From NCBI GenBank assembly GCA_964613815.1, contig CAZTKG010000001.1, positions 200,895 to 264,894 of the forward strand: a DNA stretch of 64,000 nt, read 5' to 3'. The translations under genes were made by a program, and so were the position numbers. The notes below the pieces were generated by a model, which searched no databases, was not told the DNA's origin, and saw only the letters and a list, made by a program, of their open reading frames with translations. Source of the DNA: an uncultured Gammaproteobacteria bacterium. GTDB taxonomy: Bacteria; Patescibacteriota; Patescibacteriia; UBA9934. Of this stretch, positions 4,166-53,478 are shown piece by piece; the stretch's first letter is position 1, and each line of letters opens with the position of its first letter.

Positions 4166-6094
<1,929 letters not shown>

Positions 6095-6586
6095 TTATTT
6101 TTCAGTTTTTTGAGAATTGATGATGACTTTTGCTGGGCGGATGATTTGATCCCCTGCTTTCCACCCTGTTTGAACTTCTTCTATGACGTGCTGGTCTGGC
6201 AGTTCCTGATCTTCGCGTTCGCCTGCGGATTCATGCTGGGCAGGATCGAACGCCTCCCCTACTGTCTTGATGCGCTCCAGTCCGATTGATGCCATCGCTT
6301 CATCGAACTGTTTTGCGATGAAGAGCACGCCTTGAAGCCAGTTTTGCACGTCCTTGTTTAGATCTTCGCTGTCCGGCGCGTGGTTTGTGGCCACTTGGAA
6401 ATTGTCGATCACCGGGAGCAATGCATGCGCGAGAGATATTGATAGCGCTCGTCGCTGATCCACCTTCGCCGCCGAGAGATCGTTCTTGAGATTCTCGTAG
6501 TCGGCAAGGGCGCGCTTCCAGCCAGCTAAATACTCTTCGTTCTTTGCTTTTAGTTCGTCGATGACTTTGATTTTGAGTTTTGGCAT
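6095..6586 (-). CDS. grpE: Nucleotide exchange factor GrpE
   Basis: 163 aa coiled-coil N-terminus plus GrpE C-terminal beta domain. Position between hrcA and dnaK with 3-6-nt gaps. Confidence 0.9.
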   Translation of the reverse strand: MPKLKIKVIDELKAKNEEYLAGWKRALADYENLKNDLSAAKVDQRRALSISLAHALLPVIDNFQVATNHAPDSEDLNKDVQNWLQGVLFIAKQFDEAMASIGLERIKTVGEAFDPAQHESAGEREDQELPDQHVIEEVQTGWKAGDQIIRPAKVIINSQKTEK

Positions 6587-6589
6587 AGT

Positions 6590-7276
6590 TTATTGAGATT
6601 CTAGGATGTCACGGGCCTGCTCTAGGAGTTTTATGTTGCGTCGGTAGTTCATGCGCATTGGACCCACTAGCCCCAGGATTCCCGTTACGCCGTTTGACAT
6701 GGTGTATTTGACCATGACTGCGGCCATTTGCTTATTGAATGGATTTTCTTGGCCCATCCAGACGTTTGTTTCGCTTTTGACGCTTGGGAACAGCTCTCTG
6801 AGCGTGACGTCGAACTTGTCTACGGCGTTTGAGATGAGACGAAGTGTTTGGATGTCTTCGAACTCCGGCTTAGAGAAGAGTTGGGAAATTCCACTGTAAT
6901 GACTCCAGCCTGTCTCGAGGCTTGCTAGCGCAGTTTCTCCTGATAGTCGCATGAGGCAGTGCGTGATCTCTCGGACGAGCTCGTGAGCGTTTTCGTAGCT
7001 AAGCTCTGCGTTCATACCTTCGATTGGCGCCTGCTGATGCATTGTTTCGCGAAGATAGAGGCGATACCCTTTCTCTGTTGGAACGCGGCCGGATGATGTG
7101 TGTGGCTGACGAATGTAGCCAAGGTCTTCTAGGCGCGCCATCTCGTTTCTGATGGTCGCGGATGAGACACCAAAATCATACGCATTAACGAGGGCGCGCG
7201 AGGCAATTGGCTGCGCGGTCTCTACGTATGTTTCTATAATGGCGTTGAGTATTTGACGTTGTCGCTCTGTGAGCAT
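6590..7276 (-). CDS. hrcA: Heat-inducible transcription repressor HrcA (short form)
   Basis: N-terminal winged-helix ([29 protein letters not shown]...[18 protein letters not shown]). CIRCE operator immediately upstream. The ORF-track start at 7282 is a TTG; the ATG at 7276 is preferred. About 228 aa, shorter than typical HrcA. Confidence 0.85.
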
Positions 7277-7324: not shown

Positions 7325-7389
7325 GTTTGTCTTCTCCCACCTCGTCACTCACTCCCCCCATCTCGAGCGAAGTCGAAAGATCTTGCCCT

Positions 7390-8150: not shown

Positions 8151-9818
8151 TTATTTAGCTCCTGCGAGCTGCTTCTTTTTGGCGGTTGACCACGAGGAAG
8201 CATTAAGCTTTTTGCGAGTTAGTAGTTGAGAGAAGTGCTCTCCACTGAGCATATTTGGCACAATGACGAACATTGCCCCCATTTCGTACATCTTTGCCAC
8301 GTCTGATGTTTTCTTTACCGTCACCACCACCTTCACCTTTGATTTTCGTGACTTCTTGTAGCTTAGGATATCTTGATTGATCTGGATATCTGGGATTGTG
8401 GATACAATCAGCTTTGCTTTTCCTGCCTGAATGGAGTCTAGGAACTCTTCGTTTCCAACATCTCCGTAGACATTTGGAATGCCCTTTTCTGAGAGCTCTG
8501 CCTGGAGGACTGGGTTGAAGTCGGCGACTGTGTAATTCTTTGTCATCTTTTTGATGGCTGGGAGAAGGGTCTCGCCCATGCCCTGGTAGCCGAAGAGGAG
8601 GACTTCGCTTGCTGGGGACTTTCGCTTCCTCTTTTCGATCTTTCCGACGCCCATCCATGAGAAGAGAAATTCTAACTTATCGTAAAGGAGTTCGTTGTAG
8701 GAAATGAGATAGGTGGAGAGTGTGATGGTGATGATGGCGACTAAGGTTGCCATGCTGACGATAGCGGGAGCGACAAGACCAACGGAAACAGCTGCAGCGA
8801 GGATAATGAAGGAGAATTCGCTGATTTGGGCGAGTGTGACGCCGGTGAGGAACCCTGCTCTTGGGTGATAGCCGAAGGCGCGGAGGATAAGGAGGAGGAT
8901 GATTGGGTTTCCGATGAGAACGAAGAGGCTGAAGATGATGGACTCATCGATGAAGCCGGTGATGTCGGAGAATGTGAGCTGGGTGCCGAGAATGATGAAG
9001 AAAATGATGAGGAAGAAGTCTCTGAGCGGACGGACGCGGCTGTTGATTTCTGACTGGAAGCCTGTTGATGCGAGGGAGACCCCTGCGAGAAGCGCGCCGA
9101 TTTCGATCCCGAATCCGATGAGGTGGAGGACGCTTGCGAGGGCGAAGCACCAACTAATAGCGACGAGGAAGAGAAGTTCTTGGTTGCGCGCAGCGTAGCG
9201 CATGAGGTGTGGGAGGATCCACTTTGCCGCAAGGTAGAGGAGGAAGAGGACGGCCGCTCCCTTGAGGAGAACGAAGGTGATGGCTCCTGTTAATGATCCT
9301 GATTCTGCGCCGAGACTGCTAATGACGAGCAGCGTGATCATAGCGACAAGGTCCTGGATGAGGAGGATGCCGATGCTGATACGGCCGTAGAAACGGTCTA
9401 GGTCTTCTTTGTCTGACAGGAGCTTTACGATGACGATCGTGCTTGAGAGGGCGAAGGCGAGGCCGAGGAGGAGAGCTGTTTGGGCGTGGAAGCCTAAGAG
9501 AAGGGCGATGCCGAAGCCTGCTAGGGTGGTAAAGAGAACTTGGCCTAGGCCTCCTATTATAGCGATCTTTCCGACGTCTTTTGCTTGTTGCCAGTGCAGG
9601 TTGAGCCCGACCAGGAACAACAAGAAAGCGATGCCGATTTCGCTTAGGGACTCGAACATGTGAGCTGACCCCGCTTCTGCGAGGAGATTTGGCCCGATTA
9701 ACAGCCCTGTAAGGATGTATGCGATGATGAGTGGCTGCTTGAGCCTGTATACGAGAAGGGATACGACGCCAGCCGTTACGATGACTGCGCCCATCTCGAT
9801 AAATGCCATGTCGATCAT
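8151..9818 (-). CDS. Cation:proton antiporter (CPA2/Kef-type) with C-terminal RCK/TrkA-N domain
   Basis: About 12 TM helices typical of the Na+/H+ exchanger fold, followed by a Rossmann-like RCK segment (EVLLFGYQGMGETLLPAIKK...). Confidence 0.85.
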   Translation of the reverse strand: MIDMAFIEMGAVIVTAGVVSLLVYRLKQPLIIAYILTGLLIGPNLLAEAGSAHMFESLSEIGIAFLLFLVGLNLHWQQAKDVGKIAIIGGLGQVLFTTLAGFGIALLLGFHAQTALLLGLAFALSSTIVIVKLLSDKEDLDRFYGRISIGILLIQDLVAMITLLVISSLGAESGSLTGAITFVLLKGAAVLFLLYLAAKWILPHLMRYAARNQELLFLVAISWCFALASVLHLIGFGIEIGALLAGVSLASTGFQSEINSRVRPLRDFFLIIFFIILGTQLTFSDITGFIDESIIFSLFVLIGNPIILLLILRAFGYHPRAGFLTGVTLAQISEFSFIILAAAVSVGLVAPAIVSMATLVAIITITLSTYLISYNELLYDKLEFLFSWMGVGKIEKRKRKSPASEVLLFGYQGMGETLLPAIKKMTKNYTVADFNPVLQAELSEKGIPNVYGDVGNEEFLDSIQAGKAKLIVSTIPDIQINQDILSYKKSRKSKVKVVVTVKKTSDVAKMYEMGAMFVIVPNMLSGEHFSQLLTRKKLNASSWSTAKKKQLAGAK

Positions 9819-10138: not shown

Positions 10139-10221
10139 ATGTGCTCCATTATATCATAATTCTTCTCCGTCATTGCGAGCGCAGCGCGGCAATCTCAATC
10201 CAAATAACCGCCTTCTCATCT

Positions 10222-10296
10222 CCCATCTCGACCTTGTGGAGAGATCCTGGTTCTGCCCTCGATTTCTTCAGATCTCTCCACGTTGGTCGAGATGGG
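10222..10296. repeat. Family-1 palindromic repeat, copy B
   Basis: Arm cccatctcgaccttgtggagagatc, 24-nt loop, inverted arm gatctctccacgttggtcgagatggg. Confidence 0.85.
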
Positions 10297-10351
10297 ACTA
10301 TTAGCCCCTTAAATGACAAAGAAAAAATCACCCCCTGTGGGTGATTGATGT

Positions 10352-10732
10352 CTAGGCTTCGGACTGAGCAGCCGAGAGTATGGACTCGAGGTCCCGAACC
10401 GTCATCTTGACGTCCTGAGTAGTATTGCTCGAATGGCAGTTGATGGCCAGTGAGTCACTTGCTATACCGAGCGCTCTCTCGAATGCGCGCAACCTCAGGT
10501 CGTTTTCCGCGCTCTCGCTGTTCTTGCCGACCTCGACAACCAGCACTTTGGTGTCGAGATTTATCTGCTCACCGAGTCGCTTGATGAGCTGATCGGCAGC
10601 TTGATCTGCCCACTCATTCCTCTCGTGGATCTTGCGTATTTCATCGACCTTCTCGAGCGCTTGTCTTCTTCGCGACATCCTTCCTCCCATGAAAGAACGC
10701 CTCATCCTTGCACGAGCTCTCGATCTTGTCAA
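10352..10732 (-). CDS. Hypothetical protein (GC-rich patch)
   Basis: 126-aa ORF; the N-terminal Arg-rich stretch suggests the true start is further in. No recognisable domain. Confidence 0.3.
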   Translation of the reverse strand: MTRSRARARMRRSFMGGRMSRRRQALEKVDEIRKIHERNEWADQAADQLIKRLGEQINLDTKVLVVEVGKNSESAENDLRLRAFERALGIASDSLAINCHSSNTTQDVKMTVRDLESILSAAQSEA

Positions 10733-10853
10733 GGCCGTCCCCCTCTGTCATCCAGAGCGAAGCGTGGGATCCATTCGGGCGGCACTGCTGACATGAACCG
10801 ACGTCGATCATGAGCACGCCTGCATCCCGAATGGATCCTTCGCTGCGCTCAGG

Positions 10854-11294
10854 ATGACGTGCGGATTGACAGATACCTCAATACCTGCCATGCTTACCCC
10901 TCCTCCTGGAGCATTCATGACCACCACTCCAATCCCGCTCTTTGGCGGATCAGCCGCCAAATCTGCCGTACTTCTCTTTCTTGGCTGGACTGCCTTCAGC
11001 CACCTAGTCACATTCGTAGAGCTCTCTGCACGAGCAGGAGTCACACCGTTCGAGCTCCTTTTTCTGAACTGGGCAATGCTGGCGCCGGTCTGCGCTTTCG
11101 CGGGCTGGAAGTGGATGACGCCTGCTCGCGCCCAATCGCGCTCAACGATCGTCGTCGCTCTTGCGGCCGCGGCCGGCACCCTTGTCAGCGGCCTGATCCT
11201 GATGCCGCCGAACGTGGCAGGCTCGCTGCTCTTCATCTTCTACATGTTCGCCATGTTTACGGCCATGCCGTATAACGTGCGACGCAATGCGTAG
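10854..11294 (+). CDS. Hypothetical membrane protein (GC-rich patch)
   Basis: 146-aa ORF with 3-4 hydrophobic helices. Overlapped by antisense ORFs typical of high-GC DNA, so the coding strand is uncertain. Confidence 0.3.
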   Translation: MTCGLTDTSIPAMLTPPPGAFMTTTPIPLFGGSAAKSAVLLFLGWTAFSHLVTFVELSARAGVTPFELLFLNWAMLAPVCAFAGWKWMTPARAQSRSTIVVALAAAAGTLVSGLILMPPNVAGSLLFIFYMFAMFTAMPYNVRRNA

Positions 11295-11405
11295 CTCACC
11301 GTAAGGTGAGCGTTTTTATTTCGCCCGTCTCGCCTGAGATCCTCTGAATAAAAATCCGCCTTGAAGGCGGTGATGAGAGCGAGTGTCGCGGCAGACAAGG
11401 AAGAG

Positions 11406-11810
11406 CTACAGCGAGCCGAGCGGAACCTGCACGATGTCATATTCTCCGCATCTGGCGAGTTGCTGCCTAGCACAGTGTGCCGGGACCTCGTGGAATTCTC
11501 CGTGCATCTGAACGTATGTCGCTACCCATTCCGGAAGATCCTCTCTGCGCACTCTGCGGCAGCTGACCTCCCTCAAGAATTCGAATCGCTCTCTGAGAAC
11601 GGGGGCGCAGAGACGTGTCATTGCACCGATCTCGAAGCTGTTCACACTTCTGCCCACCATGTGAGTGAGGATGTCTTGAATCCCACCTATGTGGCGCGTT
11701 GAGAGCAATTGACCGGTTACAATGGAGAGGAGGTCGGAGAGGTGGAAAGCGCGAGCTTGCATATAAGTCCCCTTTTTTGTAGGCGATTTGTTGCGCAGCA
11801 AAGATACCAA
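11406..11810 (-). CDS. Hypothetical protein (GC-rich patch)
   Basis: 134-aa ORF, tandem with the 11878..12252 ORF on the same strand. No recognisable domain. Confidence 0.3.
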   Translation of the reverse strand: MVSLLRNKSPTKKGTYMQARAFHLSDLLSIVTGQLLSTRHIGGIQDILTHMVGRSVNSFEIGAMTRLCAPVLRERFEFLREVSCRRVRREDLPEWVATYVQMHGEFHEVPAHCARQQLARCGEYDIVQVPLGSL

Positions 11811-11877
11811 CTTTTTGCCGATTTGTCAATGCTATGGAGTAATTTTTGCCATAAAAAATTGCACGCCTTACTGCGTG

Positions 11878-12252
11878 CTAGTCGATGCTCTTCGCACCAA
11901 CCAAGAGGTCGTGCAGGTCTGAGAGCTTGATCTTGATCATGTCAGTCCCCGCCTCTATGTGCATGGAAATCGGGATCACGGTGCCGAGCAGCTTGCCGAT
12001 TTCCGCCAGGATCTCCTCTTCAGCCCTTGTCGGGAAACCCCCTTCGCAAACCATGACCGTGATCAGCGTGTCATGCTCTGCGCTGTGCGCCTGCGCAATC
12101 ATCGCCCTGGCCCGGCTCCCTGCGTAGCCTTCTCGATACTCTCTCATCGTTCGCGTTGTTTGCGCGTGGAGCCGAGCTCCGAGGTCTGTCAGTGCCATAC
12201 TTCCTCCTGGAAAGAACGTATGATTCGTCACATCTGAGATGCGCGATGTCAA
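11878..12252 (-). CDS. Hypothetical protein (GC-rich patch)
   Basis: 124-aa ORF upstream of the 11406..11810 ORF on the same strand. No recognisable domain. Confidence 0.4.
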   Translation of the reverse strand: MTSRISDVTNHTFFPGGSMALTDLGARLHAQTTRTMREYREGYAGSRARAMIAQAHSAEHDTLITVMVCEGGFPTRAEEEILAEIGKLLGTVIPISMHIEAGTDMIKIKLSDLHDLLVGAKSID

Positions 12253-12262
12253 TACCGCCTAC

Positions 12263-12408
12263 ATCCTGAGGAGGGAGAGCGCAGCCACGTCGCTCGCGAG
12301 CGACGTGGCGTAGCCGACTGACGGAAGGATCTCGTGCCGCGCGGCATGGACGTCGGTGTCCGTACGGGATCCTTCCGCCGAGGGGACCGCCCCCTCGACT
12401 CAGGATGG
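12263..12408. repeat. Family-2 nested-stem repeat, copy 1
   Basis: CCTGAGGAGGGAGAG ... CTGACGGAAGGATC, loop, GGGATCCTTCCGCCG ... CTCGACTCAGGATGG. Two nested inverted repeats, just upstream of the tRNA. Confidence 0.75.
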
Positions 12409-12492
12409 TGGACAACTTGACACGCCCCCTCCCCTTCGCTATCATCACGTCACGATTTCCCGCGCGACGCCTTGAAGTATTACGCGTATCAA

Positions 12493-12567
12493 GGCCCCAT
12501 CGTCTAATGGTTAGGACGCAAGGTTCTCATCCTTGAAATCGGGGTTCGATTCCCCGTGGGGTCACCA
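12493..12567 (+). tRNA. tRNA-Glu (anticodon CUC)
   Basis: Hand-folded cloverleaf: acceptor GGCCCCA/TGGGGTC, D-arm GTCT/GGAC, anticodon stem CAAGG/CCTTG with loop TTCTCAT (U33, CTC at 34-36), T-arm GGGGT-TCGATTC-CCCCG, encoded CCA. Confidence 0.8.
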
Positions 12568-12646
12568 AAAAACATGCACTTTGGTGCGTGTTTTTTGTTT
12601 TGACTTAACAAACAAAAAACTCAACCAAGCCAGGTTGAGTAGTTGA

Positions 12647-13600
12647 TCAATGAACCGTTTTCGTAGAGCTATCGATGTTCACGCTGGGAATGAAGTCGCC
12701 TGCATCTAGCGCTGCACCCCCCTGCGAAATCACTACGTCTGACGTGATCAAACTTGCAGTAAAAATCGCACCAACCGAAGCACCGATGTCTACTTCGATA
12801 ACGAGAGCGAGTGCACTTCCTGGCGTCATAGCTTCGTCAGCCTCAAAGATGACAGTCTGACATGCGTCGCTGTCGCCCGCGTCAGTGTCGAGCTCGAGTG
12901 GTCCAGCTATCACAGTTCCGCCACTTTCGGCTATCTTGAGATTTGTGATATTGCCGTGACCGCCCGTGTTGATTAGCCCGTCATCGTCTAGATCTGACGC
13001 ACCCGGGTCATCATCTTCCTCGTCAGGCGGATCACCATCTCCGTCGTCATCTGCGCAGAATTTTATCGGAACATCTTCCATCAGGACATCTGCATCTGAC
13101 GTGATGATGAGTTCTAGCAAGGATACATTGAGGTCTCCAGAAGATGCGTACCCTGCGCTTGGGCCGAGAGATACGATGATGATCTCCGCCGTGGGGCATT
13201 CGAGAATGCTCGCGTCGGTATCGTCGCAGTCGTCCGCGAGAATGAGTCCGTCATTGTCGAGATCGTCGTCTGGCGTTGTGATGTCACAATCGTTGTCGAA
13301 CGTGTCGTATGGAACCTCAGTGGCGCCGGGATTGATGTCTGCATCCGTGTCGTTGCAGTCTCTGGCACCACGTGCTCTCACGTAGCCAGTGACACTACGT
13401 AAACAAGTGTGTATCGCCCCGGGTGGAGAGCCGTAGCCGTCGCTGTCGCTGTCAGGAAGGTGCCATATGCGTCTTGATGCGTATGGATTTGGATTGAGCG
13501 GACGACAGTCCACCGCGTCTACAATTCCATCGTTATCAGCGTCGTTCTCAAGAGAGCCTGCAAAGGTGAATGCGATCAGAATCGGGAAAAAGAGCGTCAT
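12647..13600 (-). CDS. Secreted Asp-rich repeat protein, putative calcium-binding (thrombospondin-type-3-like DxDxDG repeats)
   Basis: Signal peptide MTLFFPILIAFTFAGS; repeated DNDGIVDAVDC / DSDSDGYG / DNDCD / DLDNDGL / DDDGDGDPPD motifs; many Cys. Confidence 0.6.
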   Translation of the reverse strand: MTLFFPILIAFTFAGSLENDADNDGIVDAVDCRPLNPNPYASRRIWHLPDSDSDGYGSPPGAIHTCLRSVTGYVRARGARDCNDTDADINPGATEVPYDTFDNDCDITTPDDDLDNDGLILADDCDDTDASILECPTAEIIIVSLGPSAGYASSGDLNVSLLELIITSDADVLMEDVPIKFCADDDGDGDPPDEEDDDPGASDLDDDGLINTGGHGNITNLKIAESGGTVIAGPLELDTDAGDSDACQTVIFEADEAMTPGSALALVIEVDIGASVGAIFTASLITSDVVISQGGAALDAGDFIPSVNIDSSTKTVH

Positions 13601-13929
13601 TTCGTATTCCTTTTTGGGGTTACTTGATGTGAGCGTGGTATAGCATTATTTCACCCTTTTGTCTAGCCTTTGGTGTGAAAGGGGTCAGGTCGTGTATCGT
13701 GACATTTTTGGAGCTTGCCTCATTGTGAAATGGTAGGATGAACAGCCCCCTATGCTGCGCCTGATTTTGAAAATTGTCACGATACACGACCCGACCCCAT
13801 CCACTACTCGATCATCGCCGCGATGTGCTATTACGCTGGAGCCACGGTCGCGACCCTCCGCTGAACGCCTCCGCCGCCCCATAGAGCGCCCTGCTCTGCG
13901 GGGCGTTTCTTTTTTTGACCCTGACCCTG

Positions 13930-14003
13930 CCCCATCTCGACCTTGTGGAGAGATCTTACCTCTGCGCTGTCCGAAGAGATCTCTCGGCTACGCTCGAGAT
14001 GGG
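13930..14003. repeat. Family-1 palindromic repeat, copy C
   Basis: cccatctcgaccttgtggagagatct, loop, agatctctcggctacgctcgagatggg. Confidence 0.85.
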
Positions 14004-14055
14004 AAGAGACATTTTCCAAAATTAAAACCGCAGAGCGAATCTGCGGGATGGGGGC

Positions 14056-14553
14056 TCAAGGGGAAGCGGACACGGGGATGGGGCTCAGGGGCAGCTCGGG
14101 CACGTGCAGCCAGGCTGGGATGGCGCGGCGGCGCCTGGACCAGTTGAGGAATGCGCGTGAGAGGCTCGCCATCCAGGTCAGGCCGACTTCGAAGTCGTTT
14201 GACTTGGCGTCTTCGTCCATGCCGGCGAGGTCGAACCCTTCTGGAGCGCGGTCGGGGAGCACCATACGCTGGCACTCGTACCCTGCACCGTCATCCAACT
14301 TGCGGATGCCGATGATTGCGCACGACTGACGAGGGTCTCTCCCCTGTGTGAGAACGAGCGAAACTGCGGTGCAGTCTGCGCGTTCTGAGGGGATGATGCG
14401 GAGGATCATGCCTGCGTGCTCTGCGGCGTTTCCGCGGAATTGGGCGTAGAGCCCGATCCTTCCGTATGCGGCAGCGAAGAGTTCCTGTGTCGCTTCCGAG
14501 ATGTCGTTCATGCAGTCTCCTTTTTTGCGAGAACGTGAGAGGGATATTGCCAT
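14056..14553 (-). CDS. Hypothetical protein
   Basis: 165-aa ORF; probable start at the internal MNDISEATQELF. C-terminal part runs through GC-rich repetitive DNA and may be over-called. Confidence 0.35.
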   Translation of the reverse strand: MAISLSRSRKKGDCMNDISEATQELFAAAYGRIGLYAQFRGNAAEHAGMILRIIPSERADCTAVSLVLTQGRDPRQSCAIIGIRKLDDGAGYECQRMVLPDRAPEGFDLAGMDEDAKSNDFEVGLTWMASLSRAFLNWSRRRRAIPAWLHVPELPLSPIPVSASP

Positions 14554-14602
14554 GGATTTTGTATTTTGTCAAGCCTGAGATTTCAATCTTGATTATTTCT
14601 GC

Positions 14603-14965
14603 ATGTTTGGTATATTTTTGATACTTCCCTGGAGAAGCATGTCACTTTCGTCTGCTATGGATCGGCTCGGTATCAGCGATGGACCCGGCCTTGCTCGGCA
14701 AAATGCGTACAAGAAGAAGCAGCTGGCTCATGCTCAAGCCGACGAGCAGGCCGAGGTCTTTCGCGGCATGAGCTATGCGGAGCAGTGCGCGTGGTGCAGA
14801 TCGCTCACGGAGAAGCCTGGGCTTTCGTGCTCTGATGCGATGAGAAGCGATGAGCTTGTGCAGGTCGCCGTCCATGACGAGCATACATGGCCCTTCCATC
14901 GTACGACGGCCTTTCTCGATATTTGGTCTGGTACGTACTACGGCTGGGCCCACGAACGCGTGTAA
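14603..14965 (+). CDS. Hypothetical protein
   Basis: 120-aa ORF divergent from the previous gene. No recognisable domain. Confidence 0.3.
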   Translation: MFGIFLILPWRSMSLSSAMDRLGISDGPGLARQNAYKKKQLAHAQADEQAEVFRGMSYAEQCAWCRSLTEKPGLSCSDAMRSDELVQVAVHDEHTWPFHRTTAFLDIWSGTYYGWAHERV

Positions 14966-15016
14966 CGCTCGGATGGGCGTTCTTTTTTTTGGATGAAAAA
15001 AGAGCCCAGATCGGGC

Positions 15017-15874
15017 TTATTCTTGTTCGTGTGCCTCGAGAAGCGGCGCAATTCCCTCTGTCTCCATTGCGGCGAGCATCTTCCAGTTCGCGTCGTCAAA
15101 GACCGTTGTATGCCCAACCAATCTCTTTCGCTGGCGGACGAGTGTTTCGGCTGTGACTTGGCTGCTGAGATCGATCTCTCCCAGTCGAGCCTCCGCGAGC
15201 ATCCCGTCCGCGATGGCGAACTCGGCGAGCCAGAATGCCTCTTCGTCCACATATGCGGCGTGAGCGCGCTCCGCGGCCTTCATGTCTCCCCTACCATGCC
15301 TTGCGCGTTCGCAGGCTATGTTCGATTGCTTCGCTTGGCTGTCGCCGTGACTTGTAATGATCGTGAAGACTCTTATGATCGCGGTTCGGCTGTCGGCATT
15401 GAATGCAGCTGTTCGAGTTCTAATGACATCGCCCGCCCTCTTGTTCAAATGCCTCGTTGCGGGGGCGTAGCCGTATGGCGCGAGGACTGTCCAGAAAAGG
15501 CGACTCCAAGCTGGCGTCTGCATGAGCCTTCGAAGACCGGTGAGGTCTTTTGATGCCTTGTCGATCTCTTCTTTGTTCATCTTGTACGTCAAGAGGTTGA
15601 ACAAGAGATAGAGCGTCACCACGAACATGGCGCTGAAGCTCATGCTGACCCTCATGAATAGCAGAACTGCGTAGGCTCCTGCCATGAGACTCGCGAGCCC
15701 ATTGAGCATGACTGTCCTTTGCTCGAAGACGGTGAGTAGCACTCTATCCTCACAAAGCTGAAAGAGATCGTCCAGGGCCTTGCGGATGTTTTTGAATGCG
15801 CCCATCTGTCCCGTGAGCGGCATGAATCGTCTGAAGTCGTACGGATGAGCTTCGGCTGCGATGTCGTCTGACAT
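15017..15874 (-). CDS. Hypothetical membrane protein
   Basis: 285 aa with hydrophobic helices in the middle (GLASLMAGAYAVLLFMRVSMSFSAMFVVTLYLLFNLLTY). No recognisable family. Confidence 0.45.
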   Translation of the reverse strand: MSDDIAAEAHPYDFRRFMPLTGQMGAFKNIRKALDDLFQLCEDRVLLTVFEQRTVMLNGLASLMAGAYAVLLFMRVSMSFSAMFVVTLYLLFNLLTYKMNKEEIDKASKDLTGLRRLMQTPAWSRLFWTVLAPYGYAPATRHLNKRAGDVIRTRTAAFNADSRTAIIRVFTIITSHGDSQAKQSNIACERARHGRGDMKAAERAHAAYVDEEAFWLAEFAIADGMLAEARLGEIDLSSQVTAETLVRQRKRLVGHTTVFDDANWKMLAAMETEGIAPLLEAHEQE

Positions 15875-15943
15875 TGTTTCTCCAAAAGAAAGAACGATAG
15901 GTTTAGCCTATCGTGTCAATCTATTTCTGACAAATGATAACCT

Positions 15944-16888
15944 CTACATCAAATTAAACAACTTCCCGATGAAGAGGGCGTAGATGACGAGGTACATCGC
16001 GCCTTCGTAGCTGTGCATGCGCTTGCTGATGCCTCCGATGATGAAGAGGAGGGTTGCGACGATGAGGACCGGGATACCAAGGGTTAGCGTGCTGTGGTCG
16101 ATCGCGATTGTTGTGAATAAGCCCGGGAGGCCAACGACGAGGAGGAGGTTGAAGACGTTTGAGCCGAAGATGTTTCCGAGGGCGACGTCTGACTTTCCTG
16201 CAAGCGCGGCTTTGACGGAGACGATGAGTTCTGGGAGCGATGTTCCGACCGCGACGGCTGCGAGAGAGATAGCCCCGACGCCGATGTCGAAAATGGTCGC
16301 GAGCTCGATGACGGAATCAACGAGGTACTTTGCGCCGAAAATGAGACCTAGGAGGCCGAGGATAAGGAAGAGGATGTCTGCGGCGACGATTTTTGGACGC
16401 TTTGCTTTCTTTTTTCTAGCGCGCTTTTTGGTGGACTCGTCTTTGTAGGTGATCGAGTAGATGAAATAGATGAAAAACGCAACCATGAGGAGCATGGACT
16501 CGATGCGCGTGATTTGTCCATCCATAGCAACGCCGAGGAAGAGGACGGTTGTTGCGGCAAGGAGCGGGAGGTCGAGGTCGATGAGGTCTTTTGAGACCAC
16601 GAGCTTCCGGCCGATGAGTGCACTAACTCCTACAACGAGGAGGATGTTGGCGATGTTGGAACCGATGGCGTTTGCGGCGACCATCTCTGTGACGCCCTGC
16701 ATGGTGGCAACGATGGATGAGATAACCTCGGGGAGCGAGGTTCCGAGGCCGACGATGACGACGCCGATGACGAAGGAAGAGAGCCCTGCGGCGAGGCCGA
16801 TTTTTTCGGCGCTTTTTAGGAGCCAGCCTGCGCCTTTGACGAGGACAACGAGGGATAACAAAAATACCCCCAGCCAGAATAGAATCAT
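15944..16888 (-). CDS. Ca2+/cation antiporter, CaCA family (YrbG-like)
   Basis: 314 aa; two homologous halves each with an alpha-repeat (GTSLPE...), cytoplasmic basic loop between them. Confidence 0.85.
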   Translation of the reverse strand: MILFWLGVFLLSLVVLVKGAGWLLKSAEKIGLAAGLSSFVIGVVIVGLGTSLPEVISSIVATMQGVTEMVAANAIGSNIANILLVVGVSALIGRKLVVSKDLIDLDLPLLAATTVLFLGVAMDGQITRIESMLLMVAFFIYFIYSITYKDESTKKRARKKKAKRPKIVAADILFLILGLLGLIFGAKYLVDSVIELATIFDIGVGAISLAAVAVGTSLPELIVSVKAALAGKSDVALGNIFGSNVFNLLLVVGLPGLFTTIAIDHSTLTLGIPVLIVATLLFIIGGISKRMHSYEGAMYLVIYALFIGKLFNLM

Positions 16889-16922
16889 ATGCTAGGAGTA
16901 TATCATGTCGGTCAACCTCGAA

Positions 16923-17021
16923 GAGATCTCTCCACTCCCTTTGGTCGGTCGAGATGGGGGGCGGAGGGACTTGTTAATAAACACGTTCCGCCCTCTCCCA
17001 TCTCGACCTTGTGGAGAGATC
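16923..17021. repeat. Family-1 palindromic repeat, copy D (arms in tail-to-tail order)
   Basis: gagatctctccactccctttggtcggtcgagatggg...loop...ccctctcccatctcgaccttgtggagagatc. Lies immediately 3' of the GIY-YIG gene. Confidence 0.85.
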
Positions 17022-17027
17022 TTGCAG

Positions 17028-17318
17028 CTATACAATGTAAAAATACAAATCCCTCCTCTCTTTATTCGTCCTGTCGATCAACCAATCCTTCTTTTTTCGT
17101 GACCACTTCTTCAATTGGATCTCACGCTCTCTTGCGCCGTCGTAATCACCTCCGGCTTCGAAGTAAACGAGTTTTGTTGCGTTGTATTTCTGTGAAAAAC
17201 CTTCGACTGCCTTTGCTTTATGTTCGTGCACTCTGCGGATAAGATCACTTGTGCAGCCAATGTACAGCACCGTATCGCCCGGGTTGGCCATGATATATAT
17301 GCAGTATTCCTCCTCCAT
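17028..17318 (-). CDS. GIY-YIG nuclease family small protein
   Basis: YCIYIMANPGDTVLYIGCTSDLIRRVHEHK... is the GIY-YIG catalytic module. The ORF-track start at 17345 lies inside repeat copy E, so the start is moved to the ATG at 17318 (MEEEYCIYIM). Confidence 0.75.
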   Translation of the reverse strand: MEEEYCIYIMANPGDTVLYIGCTSDLIRRVHEHKAKAVEGFSQKYNATKLVYFEAGGDYDGAREREIQLKKWSRKKKDWLIDRTNKERRDLYFYIV

Positions 17319-17333
17319 AAATAAAGATAATAC

Positions 17334-17414
17334 CCCCTCTCCCATCTCGACCTTGCGGAGAGATCTTGCGCCTGCCGCTATCAGATCTCTCGACTACGCT
17401 CGAGATGGGAGGGG
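17334..17414. repeat. Family-1 palindromic repeat, copy E
   Basis: cccctctcccatctcgaccttgcggagagatct, loop, agatctctcgactacgctcgagatgggagggg. Immediately 5' of the GIY-YIG gene. Confidence 0.85.
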
Positions 17415-17424
17415 TGCGGAAGAT

Positions 17425-19250: not shown

Positions 19251-21302
19251 CTACTCTCCTGTCTTTTTGATCGGTGGGAGGGGTGAGATCTCGCCGCTTG
19301 GCCTTGACTTGGCCGGCGCAGCATTGCTCGTTTCAGACCTTGGTCGGCGATCTTCTTCTGGCTTTCGGCGTCTTCGGCGGCGCTTTCTTGGCTGTCTGCC
19401 CGCAGATTCTGATGAAGTCTGTGGCGACTTTTGATCCTGCTCTGGTTTTTCTTCCTGTTTTAGCACCGCCTCTTTTGGCCTGGGTTTTTCTTGGTCAAAT
19501 TTAAGAGGAGTTGGTGCATCTACAGGCCTTGATTCTTGTTTTGCGACTGGCTTTGATGTGGGCACCTTTCGAGGCTCTTTGCGCTCTTCTTTCTTATCTG
19601 CTGGCGCTGCTAATGCGGAAAGTGAGATACTCTCCCCCACTTTTCGCTCGATCGGCTTGCTGTTTTCGATCTTTGGCTGTGGAGCTAGCGCTGGACGGTC
19701 CTGTCGAGGCGGTCGATCGTTTCGTGGTCGATCTTCTCGTGGTCGATCCTGCCGGCCCTGATCGCTGCGCGGAGGCTTTTGATCTCGCCCTCGATCGCGT
19801 CCGCCTCCGCCCTTTCGCCCCTTTTCTCGCTCTGCCTTGATTTTAGGCATGCAGTCTTCGCAGTAGATTGGCCTTGATCTGTCGAGTTCAACCGGGAGCT
19901 GGAAGTTCTTTTTGCATCCTGAACAGTCGTACGCGTGCCCAAAGCGCTGCTTCTTCATCTCCTTCTTCTTTGTTTTTGCCTTGGCGTATTCGTCGTCCAA
20001 GTCCACATCTTTTCCAAAACCACTCCAAATAGCGACCTTTTCTTCGATCTTGGCTCGCGGCGTCGTGTAACGCTCGCGTGACTGAGCAATGACCCGCTCT
20101 TCCGAGCCTGTCTTTTGTGCGATTGGTGGGAGCGTTGCTGCGGAGAACGGCTGCGATGTGACGCCATCGATCATTAATTTAAGATAAATGTTGAACTTTG
20201 GGAGGTTGATGATGTCCTCCGGTGTGAACCGTGGGAGGAATTCGTCTTCCATGAACTTTGCATCTGGACCACCCACGCGGAATGCAATCAGGGTCCCGAC
20301 GTTTCCAAATACTGCGTCTCGCACCTCTTCCGTGAGTTGTGCGATATACTGGTGCGCCATGACAAGGTTGAGTTTGTATTTTCGCGCCTCAGATAAGATT
20401 GATGCGAATGACTCAACAGCAAAGTTTTGAAACTCATCAACGTAGAGATAAAAGTCTGTTCTATCATCTTTTGCAGTGTCGACACGTTCCATCGCGGACA
20501 TCTGGATCTTGGTGATAAGCATTCCTCCAAGGAGGCGAGACGCGTCCTCTCCAAGTCGCCCCTTTGAAAGGTTTACGATGAAGATTTTTTCCTCGTCCAT
20601 GATCTTTCGAACGTTGATGGAGGAATTTGCTTGCGCGACAATGTTTCGAATAATTGCTGCGGACAAAAACTGACCGACCTTGTTTTGAATCGGCGCTACC
20701 GCCTCGGTGGCGAATTTTTGTTGGTAGGAGGCGAACTCTTTGACCCAGAATTGTTTGACAATTGGATCTGTGACATTTGAGACGATTTCTTTTCTATAGA
20801 CCTCGTCTGAAAGCATGCGGTTGATGCCGAGGAGGGTTGTTCCAGGGTTGTCGATAAGGGCAAGAATGGCGTTGTTGAGGATGTATTCCATTCGTGCAGA
20901 CCAGACGCCTTCCCAGATTTTTTTGAAGACACTCATCATGCCCGCTGCGACGAGATGCTTCATGTTGGCGTCGACGGATTCGAGAATGTTGAATCCGACT
21001 GGATGTTCCAGGTCGCCTGGATTGAAGTAGACGACGTCGTTGATACGCCAGGATGGGATGTAGTCGAGGAGGAGCTCTGCCGTGTCTCCGTGTGGGTCGA
21101 CGTATGCACAGCCGTGGCCGGCGTAAATATCGGACAGGATCATGTTCTCGAGGAGCGTCGTCTTTCCCATGCCGGTTTTTCCGATGACGTAGGTGTGACG
21201 GCGGCGATCATCTGTTTTAATGCCAAATTTCCGCAAGGAGTTGCGGAAGTTTGTTTTGGCAAAATAGATAATGTCGTCTTCGTGTTCGTGCGGATATTGC
21301 AT
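19251..21302 (-). CDS. VirD4/TraD/TrwB-like coupling-protein ATPase with C-terminal zinc ribbon and Arg/Asp-rich tail
   Basis: Walker A VIGKTGMGKTT, Walker B FYLYVDEFQNF, sensor region VMAHQYIAQL. C-terminal CSGCKK...CEDC zinc-ribbon-like and an RDRGRDQKPPRSDQGRQDRPREDRPRNDRPPRQDRP low-complexity tail. Confidence 0.7.
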   Translation of the reverse strand: MQYPHEHEDDIIYFAKTNFRNSLRKFGIKTDDRRRHTYVIGKTGMGKTTLLENMILSDIYAGHGCAYVDPHGDTAELLLDYIPSWRINDVVYFNPGDLEHPVGFNILESVDANMKHLVAAGMMSVFKKIWEGVWSARMEYILNNAILALIDNPGTTLLGINRMLSDEVYRKEIVSNVTDPIVKQFWVKEFASYQQKFATEAVAPIQNKVGQFLSAAIIRNIVAQANSSINVRKIMDEEKIFIVNLSKGRLGEDASRLLGGMLITKIQMSAMERVDTAKDDRTDFYLYVDEFQNFAVESFASILSEARKYKLNLVMAHQYIAQLTEEVRDAVFGNVGTLIAFRVGGPDAKFMEDEFLPRFTPEDIINLPKFNIYLKLMIDGVTSQPFSAATLPPIAQKTGSEERVIAQSRERYTTPRAKIEEKVAIWSGFGKDVDLDDEYAKAKTKKKEMKKQRFGHAYDCSGCKKNFQLPVELDRSRPIYCEDCMPKIKAEREKGRKGGGGRDRGRDQKPPRSDQGRQDRPREDRPRNDRPPRQDRPALAPQPKIENSKPIERKVGESISLSALAAPADKKEERKEPRKVPTSKPVAKQESRPVDAPTPLKFDQEKPRPKEAVLKQEEKPEQDQKSPQTSSESAGRQPRKRRRRRRKPEEDRRPRSETSNAAPAKSRPSGEISPLPPIKKTGE

Positions 21303-21308
21303 AGGCGT

Positions 21309-22898
21309 CTACATTGGCAGATTTGTTGGCGTAGCTTGATCACGGTCAACTGGCTCGTCGCTAATGTCGAGTCCCGGAGGGAGCGGAGCTGGCATCCCTA
21401 CTTTTGGCATCCCTACGTGATCCTGCCTTGACTCTGGTGATTTCTTCTGGGCCTCCGCAATATCTTCCGTTTTGACCTCTTCTTGTTCTGAAGGACCTGT
21501 GGGCGCAGAAGGTGTTGGGACTGTCAGAGGACCTGATCTTACTCTTCTTTGCTTTTGCTTCGGCGCATCTGTTGGTGCCGCGTCTACATTTGGTAGCGTT
21601 GGAACGTCTTCCCCAGCGAAATCGAGATCCACAGGTGGCTCTGCGCGTCTTGCGCCAGTGACACGTAGGACAGGTGTTCGCGCGTCTGCTGCTGGGAAGT
21701 GGAACATGGTTGCAAGCTCTTCGCATGTGAGGATGTATGGCGTACAACCTGGACTGAATGAACGGCTCTGATAGCGCTTTGAGATCGTGCGCTGACGACC
21801 CGGCATCTGCCACTGCATCCAGAAGTAATCGTCTTTTGTGGTTGCTGGAACGTGGATGCCGAAGTTGTTCCAGCCCATGTGACGGTATTGGTGGAAGTAG
21901 CCTTTTGTCATGGCGGCGATCGTCCCTTTTCTGAATTGATCTTTGCGCGCCCAGTAGACAAACCGAACTTTTGACTTCCATCCGAGGGTTTCTAGCTTCT
22001 TTTGGATGCCATCGATCTCCGTCCGTTCTTCTGGCGTGATCTTGAACATTTTGAAATTGTCCTCTTCCGCACCACCCTCGCTTCCCGGCAGCTTAATACC
22101 AAGTGTATCTTCTAGAATCCCACTGACTAACCAGCCTATTGTTTTCTGATAAAATGACTTCTTTTTCTGCTTTGCCTTTCCATATAAGTCGTCGATTCTT
22201 TCGGCCCCCTTGTCCCGCCAATGCTGCTCGTTTGGCTGCATTATGATGAGCTGCATCCAATAGTGCTCGTGGGACTTCATGCGCCCCATTAACTCGAAGA
22301 GCGTGAGCATTGGGTCCTTGAATCGGCCGTCTTTCTCGCCTTGATGCTCGAACATCTCGTACGTCTTGATTGGGAGATAACTAGGCTTTCGAAGCACCAT
22401 CTCTGATCCGAAAAGATCGTATTCCTCTTGTGGCCATTCGGTTGGGATCTTTTTGGTGTAGTCTTCTACTTCTAGGAACTGTGCCTCTGGGTACTGTGCG
22501 TAGAACGCCCCTTGAATGAGGTCAATGTATTTCTGATCAGTTCGAACGTAAAAGCGGATATCTCCTCCGCTACCAGCGATTTCAAATGAAAATATTGCTT
22601 GAAATTTTCCATAGAAATTTGCCTCTTTCCAGGTGATGGATGACTTACTTCCAGCAATTTGCTTGAAGAAGTTTACCATTCCCATTGGGGACTGCATGGA
22701 ATCTGGCGGGACGTGGATTTCGTAGAGATGCCACTTGCGCTTCATGGCAAACTGATCCTGCTTTCTGCCGACCCAGACCATCCAGAACCCCTTGAGCATG
22801 ACCCAAAAAATCCCGACTGGGCCTAGGATGAAAAGCATGTATGCCAATATGACTTCTACTGGCGTGGAGATGAAGTAGCTCTTGATGAGTTCAAACAC
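21309..22898 (-). CDS. Hypothetical membrane protein, predicted partner of the VirD4-like ATPase
   Basis: 529 aa; two N-terminal TM helices, large soluble domain, Pro-rich C-terminus. Stop 6 nt before the ATPase start on the same strand. Confidence 0.55.
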   Translation of the reverse strand: MFELIKSYFISTPVEVILAYMLFILGPVGIFWVMLKGFWMVWVGRKQDQFAMKRKWHLYEIHVPPDSMQSPMGMVNFFKQIAGSKSSITWKEANFYGKFQAIFSFEIAGSGGDIRFYVRTDQKYIDLIQGAFYAQYPEAQFLEVEDYTKKIPTEWPQEEYDLFGSEMVLRKPSYLPIKTYEMFEHQGEKDGRFKDPMLTLFELMGRMKSHEHYWMQLIIMQPNEQHWRDKGAERIDDLYGKAKQKKKSFYQKTIGWLVSGILEDTLGIKLPGSEGGAEEDNFKMFKITPEERTEIDGIQKKLETLGWKSKVRFVYWARKDQFRKGTIAAMTKGYFHQYRHMGWNNFGIHVPATTKDDYFWMQWQMPGRQRTISKRYQSRSFSPGCTPYILTCEELATMFHFPAADARTPVLRVTGARRAEPPVDLDFAGEDVPTLPNVDAAPTDAPKQKQRRVRSGPLTVPTPSAPTGPSEQEEVKTEDIAEAQKKSPESRQDHVGMPKVGMPAPLPPGLDISDEPVDRDQATPTNLPM

Positions 22899-32401: not shown

Positions 32402-32523
32402 CACTCCCCATCTCGAGCGTAGTCGAGAGATCTCACGGTATAGCGATGCTGGTGTTTCTATTTGTGACAGTCATGACGCACTCCCCCGAAGAGATCTCTC
32501 GACTTCGCTCGAGATGGGAAGGG
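32402..32523. repeat. Family-1 palindromic repeat, copy F (long loop, extra direct repeat gcactcccc at both arms)
   Basis: cactccccatctcgagcgtagtcgagagatctc ... cactcccccgaagagatctctcgacttcgctcgagatgggaaggg; between hpf and secA. Confidence 0.85.
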
Positions 32524-32860: not shown

Positions 32861-33826
32861 TTATTGAATATATTGTACCTCGTCATGGAGGTTGATGCCG
32901 AATTGCTCCTTTGCCTGTTCTTTGACGTGGTTTACGATCGCCATGACATCCTCAGCTTTCGCCTCCCCGAGATTCACGACGAAGTTGCCGTGCTCGTCGC
33001 TGATTTTGGCGCCGCCGACTTGGTACCCTTTGAGGCCCATTTGGTCGATGATCCAGCCGGAGCTGAGGCGCATGGATTTGATCATTGGCTCTGGGATGTC
33101 TAGCTTGGTTTTGATGGATTCTAGCTCTTCTTGTGACACGATGTCGTAGTTTTTGAACATGCAGCCGGCAGAACCTGCGTAGAGAGGTTGGGAGGATTTT
33201 CTGGCGTTGAGATGGTCGGTGAGCTTTGCCTTGAGTTCTTCGGCCTTGCCGGGCTTGAGCTCTAATGTTGCTTCGAGGACGATATCTTCTGAGTGCTTGA
33301 TGGCGGACTCTCGGTAGCCGAAGTTGAGATCTACTGCTTGGATGTCGATGACTTCATGGTTGCGGAGGATTTTTACCGATGTTACCGAGTCCTTCATTTC
33401 TCCACCGAAGCAGCCAGCGTTTCCTCTGACGGCGCCACCGATGGTGCCCGGGAGGGAGATGGCCCATTCGAAGCCCTCTAGACCTGCCGATGCGGTGATT
33501 CTGGCGAGGGCGGCGGAGATCATGCCTGCGCCTGCAGTAACGGTCGTGTCCGTGATTTGATGATCTCGGAGGGCGAGCTTGATGCATGCGCCGCGGAAGC
33601 CTTCATCGGCAACCAAGGTGTTTGATCCTCCGCCGAGGATGAAGTAGCGGACATCTTCATCTGACATCACCTTGATTGCGTGCTGGAGCTCCTCGATAGT
33701 TCTGACTTCGATGAACAGATCAGCAGGGCCTCCGATGCGAAAATTTAGATGCTTTGCGAGAGGCTCGTCTTGTTTAACGCGGTCTGTTGAGATCTTTTTT
33801 GCGAGTTTTTTGATCGTTTCTTCCAT
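32861..33826 (-). CDS. murB: UDP-N-acetylenolpyruvoylglucosamine reductase MurB
   Basis: FAD-binding domain (NFRIGGPADLFIEV...ILGGGSNTLV) and MurB C-terminal domain. Start set at the internal ATG 33826, because the ORF-track extension would overlap murC. Confidence 0.9.
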   Translation of the reverse strand: MEETIKKLAKKISTDRVKQDEPLAKHLNFRIGGPADLFIEVRTIEELQHAIKVMSDEDVRYFILGGGSNTLVADEGFRGACIKLALRDHQITDTTVTAGAGMISAALARITASAGLEGFEWAISLPGTIGGAVRGNAGCFGGEMKDSVTSVKILRNHEVIDIQAVDLNFGYRESAIKHSEDIVLEATLELKPGKAEELKAKLTDHLNARKSSQPLYAGSAGCMFKNYDIVSQEELESIKTKLDIPEPMIKSMRLSSGWIIDQMGLKGYQVGGAKISDEHGNFVVNLGEAKAEDVMAIVNHVKEQAKEQFGINLHDEVQYIQ

Positions 33827-36690: not shown

Positions 36691-36778
36691 CTCCCATCTC
36701 GACCGAGCGAAGCGAGTGGAGAGATCTCTTCGAACTCGAATAGCTGCGAGATCTCTCCACTTTGGTCGAGATGGGACA
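36691..36778. repeat. Family-1 palindromic repeat, copy G
   Basis: ctcccatctcgaccgagcgaagcgagtggagagatctct, loop, gagatctctccactttggtcgagatgggacagg. Confidence 0.85.
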
Positions 36779-39986: not shown

Positions 39987-40038
39987 TCCCCATCTCGACC
40001 GAAGTGGAGAGATCTCTCGACTTCGCTCGAGATGGGAA
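39987..40038. repeat. Family-1 palindromic repeat, copy H (compact, no loop)
   Basis: ccccatctcgaccgaagtggagagatctctcgacttcgctcgagatgggaag; between the permease and dnaB. Confidence 0.85.

Positions 40039-52191: not shown

Positions 52192-53478
<1,287 letters not shown>

Follow-up and report, generated by a model that had tools for sequence, protein, structure and literature searches.

A small GIY-YIG nuclease gene bracketed by dispersed hairpin repeats in a Candidate Phyla Radiation bacterium: a probable Ssn nuclease with its cognate repeats

The DNA analysed here, referred to as the window, is a 64-kb stretch from a marine metagenome (contig CAZTKG010000001.1, positions 200,895 to 264,894). 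Its best named relatives are Candidatus Uhrbacteria, in the Candidate Phyla Radiation (CPR, Patescibacteria), and it is chromosomal, carrying SecA, DnaK, DnaB, ClpB and SHMT genes. Within it lies a small GIY-YIG nuclease gene bracketed by copies of a palindromic repeat (Table 1). This arrangement had been reported from an inspection of the letters alone (the sequence-only reading), and both the open reading frame (ORF) and the flanking repeats proved to be as described. The protein matches the Pfam family GIY-YIG (PF01541) over residues 5-76 (E=8e-14), with no other Pfam match. An AlphaFold2 (AF2) model predicts one compact domain with the GIY-YIG fold, at a mean pLDDT of 92.5, and a fold search with this model returned GIY-YIG nucleases only, namely UPF0213, Slx1 and the N-terminal domain of UvrC. 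Residues Y8, Y19, R29, H33, E66 and N85, at positions that vary little or not at all among 29 homologs, are retained. The GC content of the gene is 44.7%, compared with 51.8% for the window and 49-62% for the neighbouring genes, and it is the single GIY-YIG gene in the 64 kb. A second GIY-YIG-like tblastn match at 33408-33647 (E=0.009) was dismissed as noise, as it falls within an ORF of 353 amino acids (aa) that we take to be MurB-like.

We placed the start codon at the ATG at 17318, where the alignments of the homologs begin. A longer ORF of 105 aa, 17028-17345, was rejected as the true gene because its ATG falls within a repeat arm, making the N-terminal extension spurious. An ATG is present in each arm, at 17343-17345 and in all reverse-oriented arms (TCGAGATGGG), and the repeats can therefore give rise to spurious extensions of this kind.

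Table 1. Positions of the nuclease gene and of the repeat elements in the window (nt, nucleotides).
Feature	Position	Strand	Details
ssn-like gene	17028..17318	-	96-aa single-domain GIY-YIG nuclease; stop codon included
Type A arm, CCCATCTCGACCTTGCGGAGAGATCT	17341..17366	+	upstream side of the gene, 22 nt before the ATG; inner arm of the right-hand doublet
Type B arm, reverse complement CCCATCTCGAGCGTAGTCGAGAGATCT	17383..17409	-	outer arm of the right-hand doublet 17341-17409
Type A arm	16997..17022	+	5 nt past the stop codon; direct repeat of the arm 17341-17366
Type A arm with 8-nt loop insertion	16924..16958	-	pairs with 16997-17022
50-nt direct repeat around the gene, left copy	16976..17025	+	family D1; 86% over 50 nt
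50-nt direct repeat around the gene, right copy	17320..17369	+	34-nt core of the pair differs at one base
Doublet, A + A arms	10222..10296
Doublet, A + B arms	13931..14003
Doublet, both arms type A, inverted order	16924..17022
Doublet, A + B arms	17341..17409		right of the gene
Doublet, B + B arms	32407..32518		58-nt spacer
Doublet	36693..36775		first arm with loop insertion CGAGCGAAGCGAG; variant also beside the L015 homolog
Doublet, A + B arms	39989..40036		no spacer; central AGATCT common to both arms
Doublet	53353..53434		~35-nt loop insertion in second arm
Single type B arm	7357..7383	+	slightly degenerate

The unit of the repeat is an arm of ~26-35 nt, CCC-ATCTCGA(C/G)C-loop-(G/C)GAGAGAT-CT, usually with a pyrimidine-rich tract upstream. 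Two types of arm can be distinguished, A (...GACC..GTGGAGAG...) and B (...GAGCGWAGTCGAGAG...), and some arms carry loop insertions. The first three nucleotides, referred to below as the tag, are CCC in all 17 arms of the window, the conserved 5′ end being CCCA. To count the arms we used the 10-nt core CCCATCTCGA, which occurs 18 times exactly in the window and 26 times with at most one mismatch, against 6.1 expected. True arms account for 17 of the 18 exact cores and form eight inverted doublets and one single arm; the remaining copy, at 9790, sits within a gene and is a chance match. All 17 arms are intergenic (~0.27 per kb), in keeping with the earlier description of the repeat as dispersed across intergenic DNA. 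When folded as single-stranded DNA (ssDNA), the doublet at 17341-17409 reached -25.3 kcal/mol (z = -5.6) and the palindrome at 16924-17022 reached -36.4 kcal/mol (z = -9.0).

Each side of the gene carries two arms, lying 5-95 nt from the ORF. Along the direction of the gene the order is a forward B arm, a spacer, a reverse A arm, 22 nt, the ORF, 5 nt, a reverse A arm, a spacer and a forward A arm. The two gene-proximal arms (16997-17021 and 17341-17365) are direct repeats with 24 of 25 positions identical; the sequence-only reading had the identity right and the second copy one nucleotide off, at 17342-17366. Its further identical copies of the 25-mer fared similarly, the site at 10222 being correct and the other lying at 13931, not 13930. 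A third copy at 53353 has two mismatches, and no copy arose in 100 dinucleotide-preserving shuffles. A detail missed in that reading is the inward-facing arm order of the element to the left of the gene (16924-17022), in which the CCC tag ends point inward, whereas in the other seven doublets they point outward. The reversed doublet looks as if it were the product of a local inverted duplication. We also observed that the stem of this left palindrome (16963-16996) reaches into unique sequence outside the repeat family (GGGCGGAGGGAC / GTTCCGCCCTC).

Repeats this dense in intergenic DNA will flank some genes by chance, and the nearest solved structures to the protein are UPF0213/YhbQ proteins (PDB 1ZG2, 1YWL), which are likewise small and single-domain. 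The gene could thus be a housekeeping gene of the UPF0213/YhbQ type, surrounded by unrelated REP-like or terminator palindromes. To the known UPF0213 proteins (e.g. BH0048, EF2693), however, the window protein has only ~26% identity and a distant profile match (E=3.4e-8). The repeats have no T-tract and were not called as intrinsic terminators in a terminator scan, and an Rfam search of them gave no family match. More decisive is the behaviour of the family as a whole. Sampling one genome per species, a homolog scan gave at least 572 homologs, and 80 loci were kept, from Gammaproteobacteria, Clostridia, Bacteroidales, Dehalococcoidia, Cloacimonadota, Patescibacteria and other groups; the window protein is 44-60% identical to 79 homologs across many phyla. 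Using a numpy script we then looked, independently of any motif, for a repeat (score of at least 16) shared between the 300-nt 5′ and 3′ flanks of each gene. Such a repeat was present at 75% of 84 homolog loci; of 351 control positions taken from these loci, 2% had one. It was direct in 56% of the homolog loci (1.7% of controls) and inverted in 36%. The association of gene and repeat is real and functional, and chance proximity is a very improbable explanation for it.

The hairpins themselves point the same way, since the same hairpin stands beside homologs in unrelated phyla. At L015 (Gammaproteobacteria), L028 (Cloacimonadota), L042 (Thiotrichaceae) and L045 the homolog is adjoined by GTCATCTCGACCGAAGCGGAGAGATCT, GTCATCTCGAGCGTAGCCGAGAGATCT and GTCATCTCGACCGAGCGAAGCGAGCGGAGAGATCT, which match the A, B and insertion-variant arms of the window save for the tag (GTC in place of CCC) and one or two loop or stem bases; GTCATCTCGAGCGTAGCCGAGAGATCT beside the homologs of other phyla and CCCATCTCGAGCGTAGTCGAGAGATCT in the window are nearly the same hairpin. 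The hairpins of L042 are also arranged as forward-reverse doublets, and the closest homologs (63-65% identical) are likewise flanked by GTC-tagged doublets.

A system of this composition has been described. Chenal et al. 2025 (Nat Commun 16:2388, PMC11893778) reported the Ssn nucleases together with their hairpin repeats, NTS and the Ssn-related motif (SRM). In Neisseria meningitidis the nuclease is SsnA (94 aa; CDD cd10448), which consists of a single GIY-YIG domain (PMC11893778). It binds the NTS hairpin repeat CGTCATTCCCGCGMAVGCGGGAATCYRG exclusively in single-stranded form and cleaves one strand, upstream of the repeat (PMC11893778). Four Ssn homologs were shown to bind the repeat and to cleave ssDNA beside the hairpin strand-specifically; double-stranded DNA (dsDNA) is not cut by the characterised members (PMC11893778). 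Cleavage is governed by the three nucleotides before the palindrome, while the C just after it matters for binding (PMC11893778). An SRM was found near 71% of homolog genes, on both sides in 42%, and 81% of the genomes with more than 200 SRMs carry an ssn gene (PMC11893778). The sequence-only reading held that a GIY-YIG enzyme in this position had not been characterised, a view now out of date. Within the library searched, we found no later paper on the Ssn family.

Several features place the window protein in this family. A member would be expected to be a single-domain protein of ~90-150 aa without an extra DNA-binding domain, and the 96-aa protein has this form. The residues that should be conserved, the tyrosines of the GIY and YIG motifs, an arginine and the metal-binding glutamate, are present as Y8, Y19, R29 and E66. 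A recurring hairpin inverted repeat of 20-50 nt, another mark of the family, lies on both sides of the gene and is dispersed in intergenic DNA, as in the published system. The protein shares 47-50% identity (E 1e-26 to 4e-30) with those of L032, L067, L085 and L070, whose flanks match the published SRM pattern, on both sides in the first three and on the 3′ side only in L070; its similarity to SRM-flanked proteins of the Ssn type is far greater than to UPF0213 proteins. Finally, the arms follow the SRM layout of a 3-nt tag, a hairpin loop whose 5′ stem strand begins and whose 3′ stem strand ends with AT, and a C, as seen by setting the window arm CCC-ATCTCGAS...SGAGAGAT-C beside the Neisseria NTS, GTC-ATTCCCGCG...GCGGGAAT-C, and they are almost identical to the SRM variants beside homologs in other phyla. 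Taken together, this makes it likely that the ORF encodes an Ssn nuclease and that the palindromic repeats are its cognate SRMs, the protein presumably acting on ssDNA as SsnA does. The order of repeat, gene and repeat is the usual cassette of the Ssn family, and the locus is in all likelihood a further member of it and not a new kind of system. What is new is the Uhrbacteria-like CPR host, the high density of the repeat, its organisation in doublets and a CCC tag that is shared with Anaerococcus.

Some observations count against this assignment. The published SRM motif, HGTCWYN(0-2)YYVSBRHN(0-5)WNVSBRGN(0-2)RNCYNB, of which a family member would be expected to have a match within 500 nt on both sides of the gene, has zero matches in the whole 64-kb window. 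The tag is CCC and not GTC, a difference at the three nucleotides reported as critical for cleavage. In contrast to the NTS, at -8.9 kcal/mol, single arms fold weakly as ssDNA (~-4 kcal/mol, z ~-1.2); the stable, strongly folding unit is the inverted doublet, in which the tag would be base-paired. The placement in the Ssn family is argued from homology to SRM-flanked proteins, and the biochemistry of the family covers four homologs, none of them from the CPR or CCC-tagged (PMC11893778). CPR/Patescibacteria is a group absent from the main text of that paper.

The failure of the motif has a ready explanation. As implemented here, the published pattern matches 7 of the 80 homolog loci and misses the other 73, and it misses L006 as well, from which we conclude that the pattern is too narrow and not that the window is foreign to the family. 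In the window it is defeated by the CCC tag and by a stem less rich in G and C. We replaced it with a generalised hairpin, defined by GTC, a stem opening with A and a pyrimidine, and then C. The density of GTC-tagged hairpins of this form is 1.16 per kb in the 300 nt to either side of the 80 homologs and 0.038 per kb in the rest of these loci, a ~30-fold difference; the hairpins tend to be forward upstream of the gene and reverse downstream.

If the window protein works as the Ssn family does, it would bind the hairpin only in ssDNA, such as is exposed during replication, DNA uptake, conjugative transfer or repair. It would then nick the hairpin-bearing strand a few nucleotides 5′ of the tag and would leave duplex DNA and the opposite strand uncut. 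For ssDNA binding, for the position of the cut and for strand specificity we infer this behaviour from the results of Chenal et al. 2025 (PMC11893778). In Neisseria, SsnA lowers transformation by repeat-carrying DNA (PMC11893778). One speculative role in the cell would be to restrict or shape the recombination of incoming ssDNA around SRM-flanked variable regions; another, also speculative, is that of a selfish, self-maintaining element.

The surroundings of the gene are variable. In related contigs (L215/L216 and L217), whose Band7 proteins are 83-85% identical to that of the window, two blocks are retained, SecD-SecF-DUF8128-VirD4-like-BacA-Band7 and Ion_trans_2-Na/H exchanger. Between Band7 and Ion_trans_2 lies a variable island, at 10139-17424 in the window, 10760-12374 in L215 and 10757-16836 in L217, with a gene content that differs in each of the three related CPR genomes. 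In the window this 7.3-kb island houses the ssn gene and four of the eight doublets, and the clustering of repeats in a variable gene island is again as in Neisseria, where NTS repeats lie around variable genes. A gene for a VirD4/TrwB-like coupling protein, with DUF8128 (19251-22898 in the window; also in L001, L215 and L217), adjoins BacA-Band7 in all three related CPR genomes, and this coupling protein is a possible source of ssDNA transfer intermediates.

We next considered the tag. In a metagenome scan for the CCC-tagged arm, from which the statements below hold among the matches listed (the organism of the window is not one of them), A, B and insertion-variant arms identical to those of the window, and also paired, were found in contigs of 28-33% GC (L090-L169, e.g. 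L166, L165, L152, L128 and L154). These contigs are Anaerococcus vaginalis and A. hydrogenalis (Bacillota), and the other matches were sporadic and single. No ssn gene was found within the ~±5 kb fetched around these dispersed Anaerococcus-type copies. Genomes that differ greatly in base composition thus share a conserved arm sequence. In Anaerococcus groningensis (L057), TCC- and CCC-tagged arms form a tandem array that surrounds an Ssn homolog with 49% identity to the window protein. We observed that this array (L057, 9600-10900) consists of BIME-like tandem units of ~160 nt with one TCC arm and one CCC arm each, several units standing on each side of the gene. A GCC-tagged variant is present in the Uhrbacteria metagenome-assembled genome L082. 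Tags other than GTC therefore occur in several lineages, outside the published motif. As all 17 arms of the window have CCC, the repeat family would appear to have spread, or to have been homogenised, within this lineage after the change of tag.

Such spread raises the question of whether the nuclease mobilises its repeats, as was implied by the comparison with REPtrons in the sequence-only reading. In layout the comparison is sound: as in RAYT/REPIN systems, a single-copy nuclease gene is embedded among short palindromic repeats that are dispersed between genes as inverted, REPIN-like doublets (eight here), and the pairing of two arm types recalls the Y and Z REP types of BIMEs. The resemblance ends with the enzyme, which according to both the Pfam and fold searches is solely a GIY-YIG hydrolase and not an HUH Y1 (IS200/IS605-type) transposase. 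The repeats also lack the GTAG or CGTC tetranucleotide tag, and the arms next to the gene are direct repeats, not inverted ones. Hydrolysis of DNA by GIY-YIG enzymes proceeds without a covalent intermediate, which rules out the kind of strand transfer that HUH/Y1 transposases perform. We know of no transposition chemistry for this class of enzyme, nor of any strand-transfer or mobilising activity in the Ssn family.

A GIY-YIG nuclease might nevertheless spread hairpin doublets and its own cassette if nicks at ssDNA hairpins prompted their copying through repair or recombination. The bracketing of the gene by a 50-nt direct repeat, and the direct flanking repeats at more than half of the homolog loci, are as expected on such a scheme. 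In most genomes the repeat is concentrated at the gene, with the nearest two copies on either side of it, and just 17 of 55 loci have another within ~15-19 kb (33 copies in 814 kb); by comparison, the 17 arms in 64 kb of the window are unusually dense. The scattering of the family across phyla at 44-60% identity and the low GC content of the gene fit horizontal movement, and a lineage-specific tag common to 17 of 17 arms implies spread or homogenisation within the genome. Neither an Ssn-type gene nor a copy of the repeat was found in the ~20 kb of the syntenic relatives L215/L216 and L217. Against this, direct repeats could equally reflect a gene lying within a repeat array, as in L057, and no insertion polymorphism was detected. 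Presence or absence of individual copies, which the sequence-only reading had proposed to compare between strains, did not vary, and no empty sites were seen, among five contigs from different samples that encode the identical protein, are 99.95-100% identical and represent a single population (99.95% identity over 9.9 kb for L003). The one candidate repeat insertion that we followed, at L006, turned out to be a deletion. We consider mobilisation of this sort unlikely, although it is compatible with the assignment to the Ssn family and would add to it. The authors of the Ssn study likened NTS-ssnA-NTS to an insertion sequence and to RAYT/REP/BIME, and also raised REPtron-like mobilisation as a hypothesis (PMC11893778).

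A bolder form of this idea would be that the CCC hairpin marks a separate Ssn specificity class shared by the CPR bacterium and Anaerococcus, and that the ssn gene with its doublets is a self-propagating element whose nuclease spreads the doublets by nicking ssDNA hairpins. We regard this combination as distinctly doubtful. Were it true, the unit would be a hydrolytic counterpart of RAYT/REPIN, and the direct repeats around the gene in most genomes would be explained.

The L006 locus (5900-6260) deserves a separate remark. The homolog is cut to 82 aa, and we had considered an SRM insertion as the cause. Alignment with L219 and L220 instead shows one population variant with a 74-nt internal deletion and a change in the copy number of a tandem unit, the variant having an extra 22-nt unit upstream. 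This suggests that the gene can be lost while the flanking hairpins remain.

GIY-YIG homing endonucleases exist, and the gene, which is flanked by the palindrome and lies in or next to a copy of it, has a position that such an enzyme might take up. The sequence-only reading had raised this possibility, in which a free-standing enzyme would cut the duplex palindrome and copy its gene into the cleaved sites. Enzymes of the I-TevI type share the GIY-YIG catalytic fold and the association of the gene with a presumed recognition sequence, but they need a linker and a C-terminal DNA-binding domain and belong to introns or to phage or organelle genomes. The 96 aa of the window protein are all catalytic domain, and the gene stands in a chromosomal context that is neither intronic nor phage. 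The window has one copy of the gene for 17 potential targets in 64 kb, whereas homing should leave such sites occupied or destroyed, and 2.9 million viral contigs yielded only 4 homologs. The Ssn family acts on ssDNA and not on duplex, its characterised members sparing dsDNA (PMC11893778), and homing is in our judgement scarcely credible here.

Assignment of the window gene to the Ssn family extends the Ssn/SRM system to the CPR, bacteria with small genomes for which DNA uptake is commonly thought to be central to the way of life. Since the published motif misses the CCC tag of the window, and the TCC and GCC tags found elsewhere, surveys that rely on it will undercount Ssn systems. Each new pair of Ssn protein and hairpin is a candidate reagent for sequence-specific cutting of ssDNA, and a pair whose difference lies precisely in the three nucleotides of the tag, which are reported to govern cleavage, would offer a direct handle on how specificity is encoded. 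The bracketing of the gene by mostly direct repeats across the family bears on whether ssn cassettes are mobile.

Two further features were noted. In the relative L217 another small GIY-YIG gene lies at 6828-7097, between DUF8128 and the VirD4-like gene. Over 67 aa its product shares 36% identity with the window protein, and by eye we take it to be UPF0213/YhbQ-like; unlike the ssn gene of the window, it has no flanking hairpin repeats that we could see. The island of the window also contains a tRNA gene, at 12493-12564 on the plus strand (Rfam RF00005, 63 bits).

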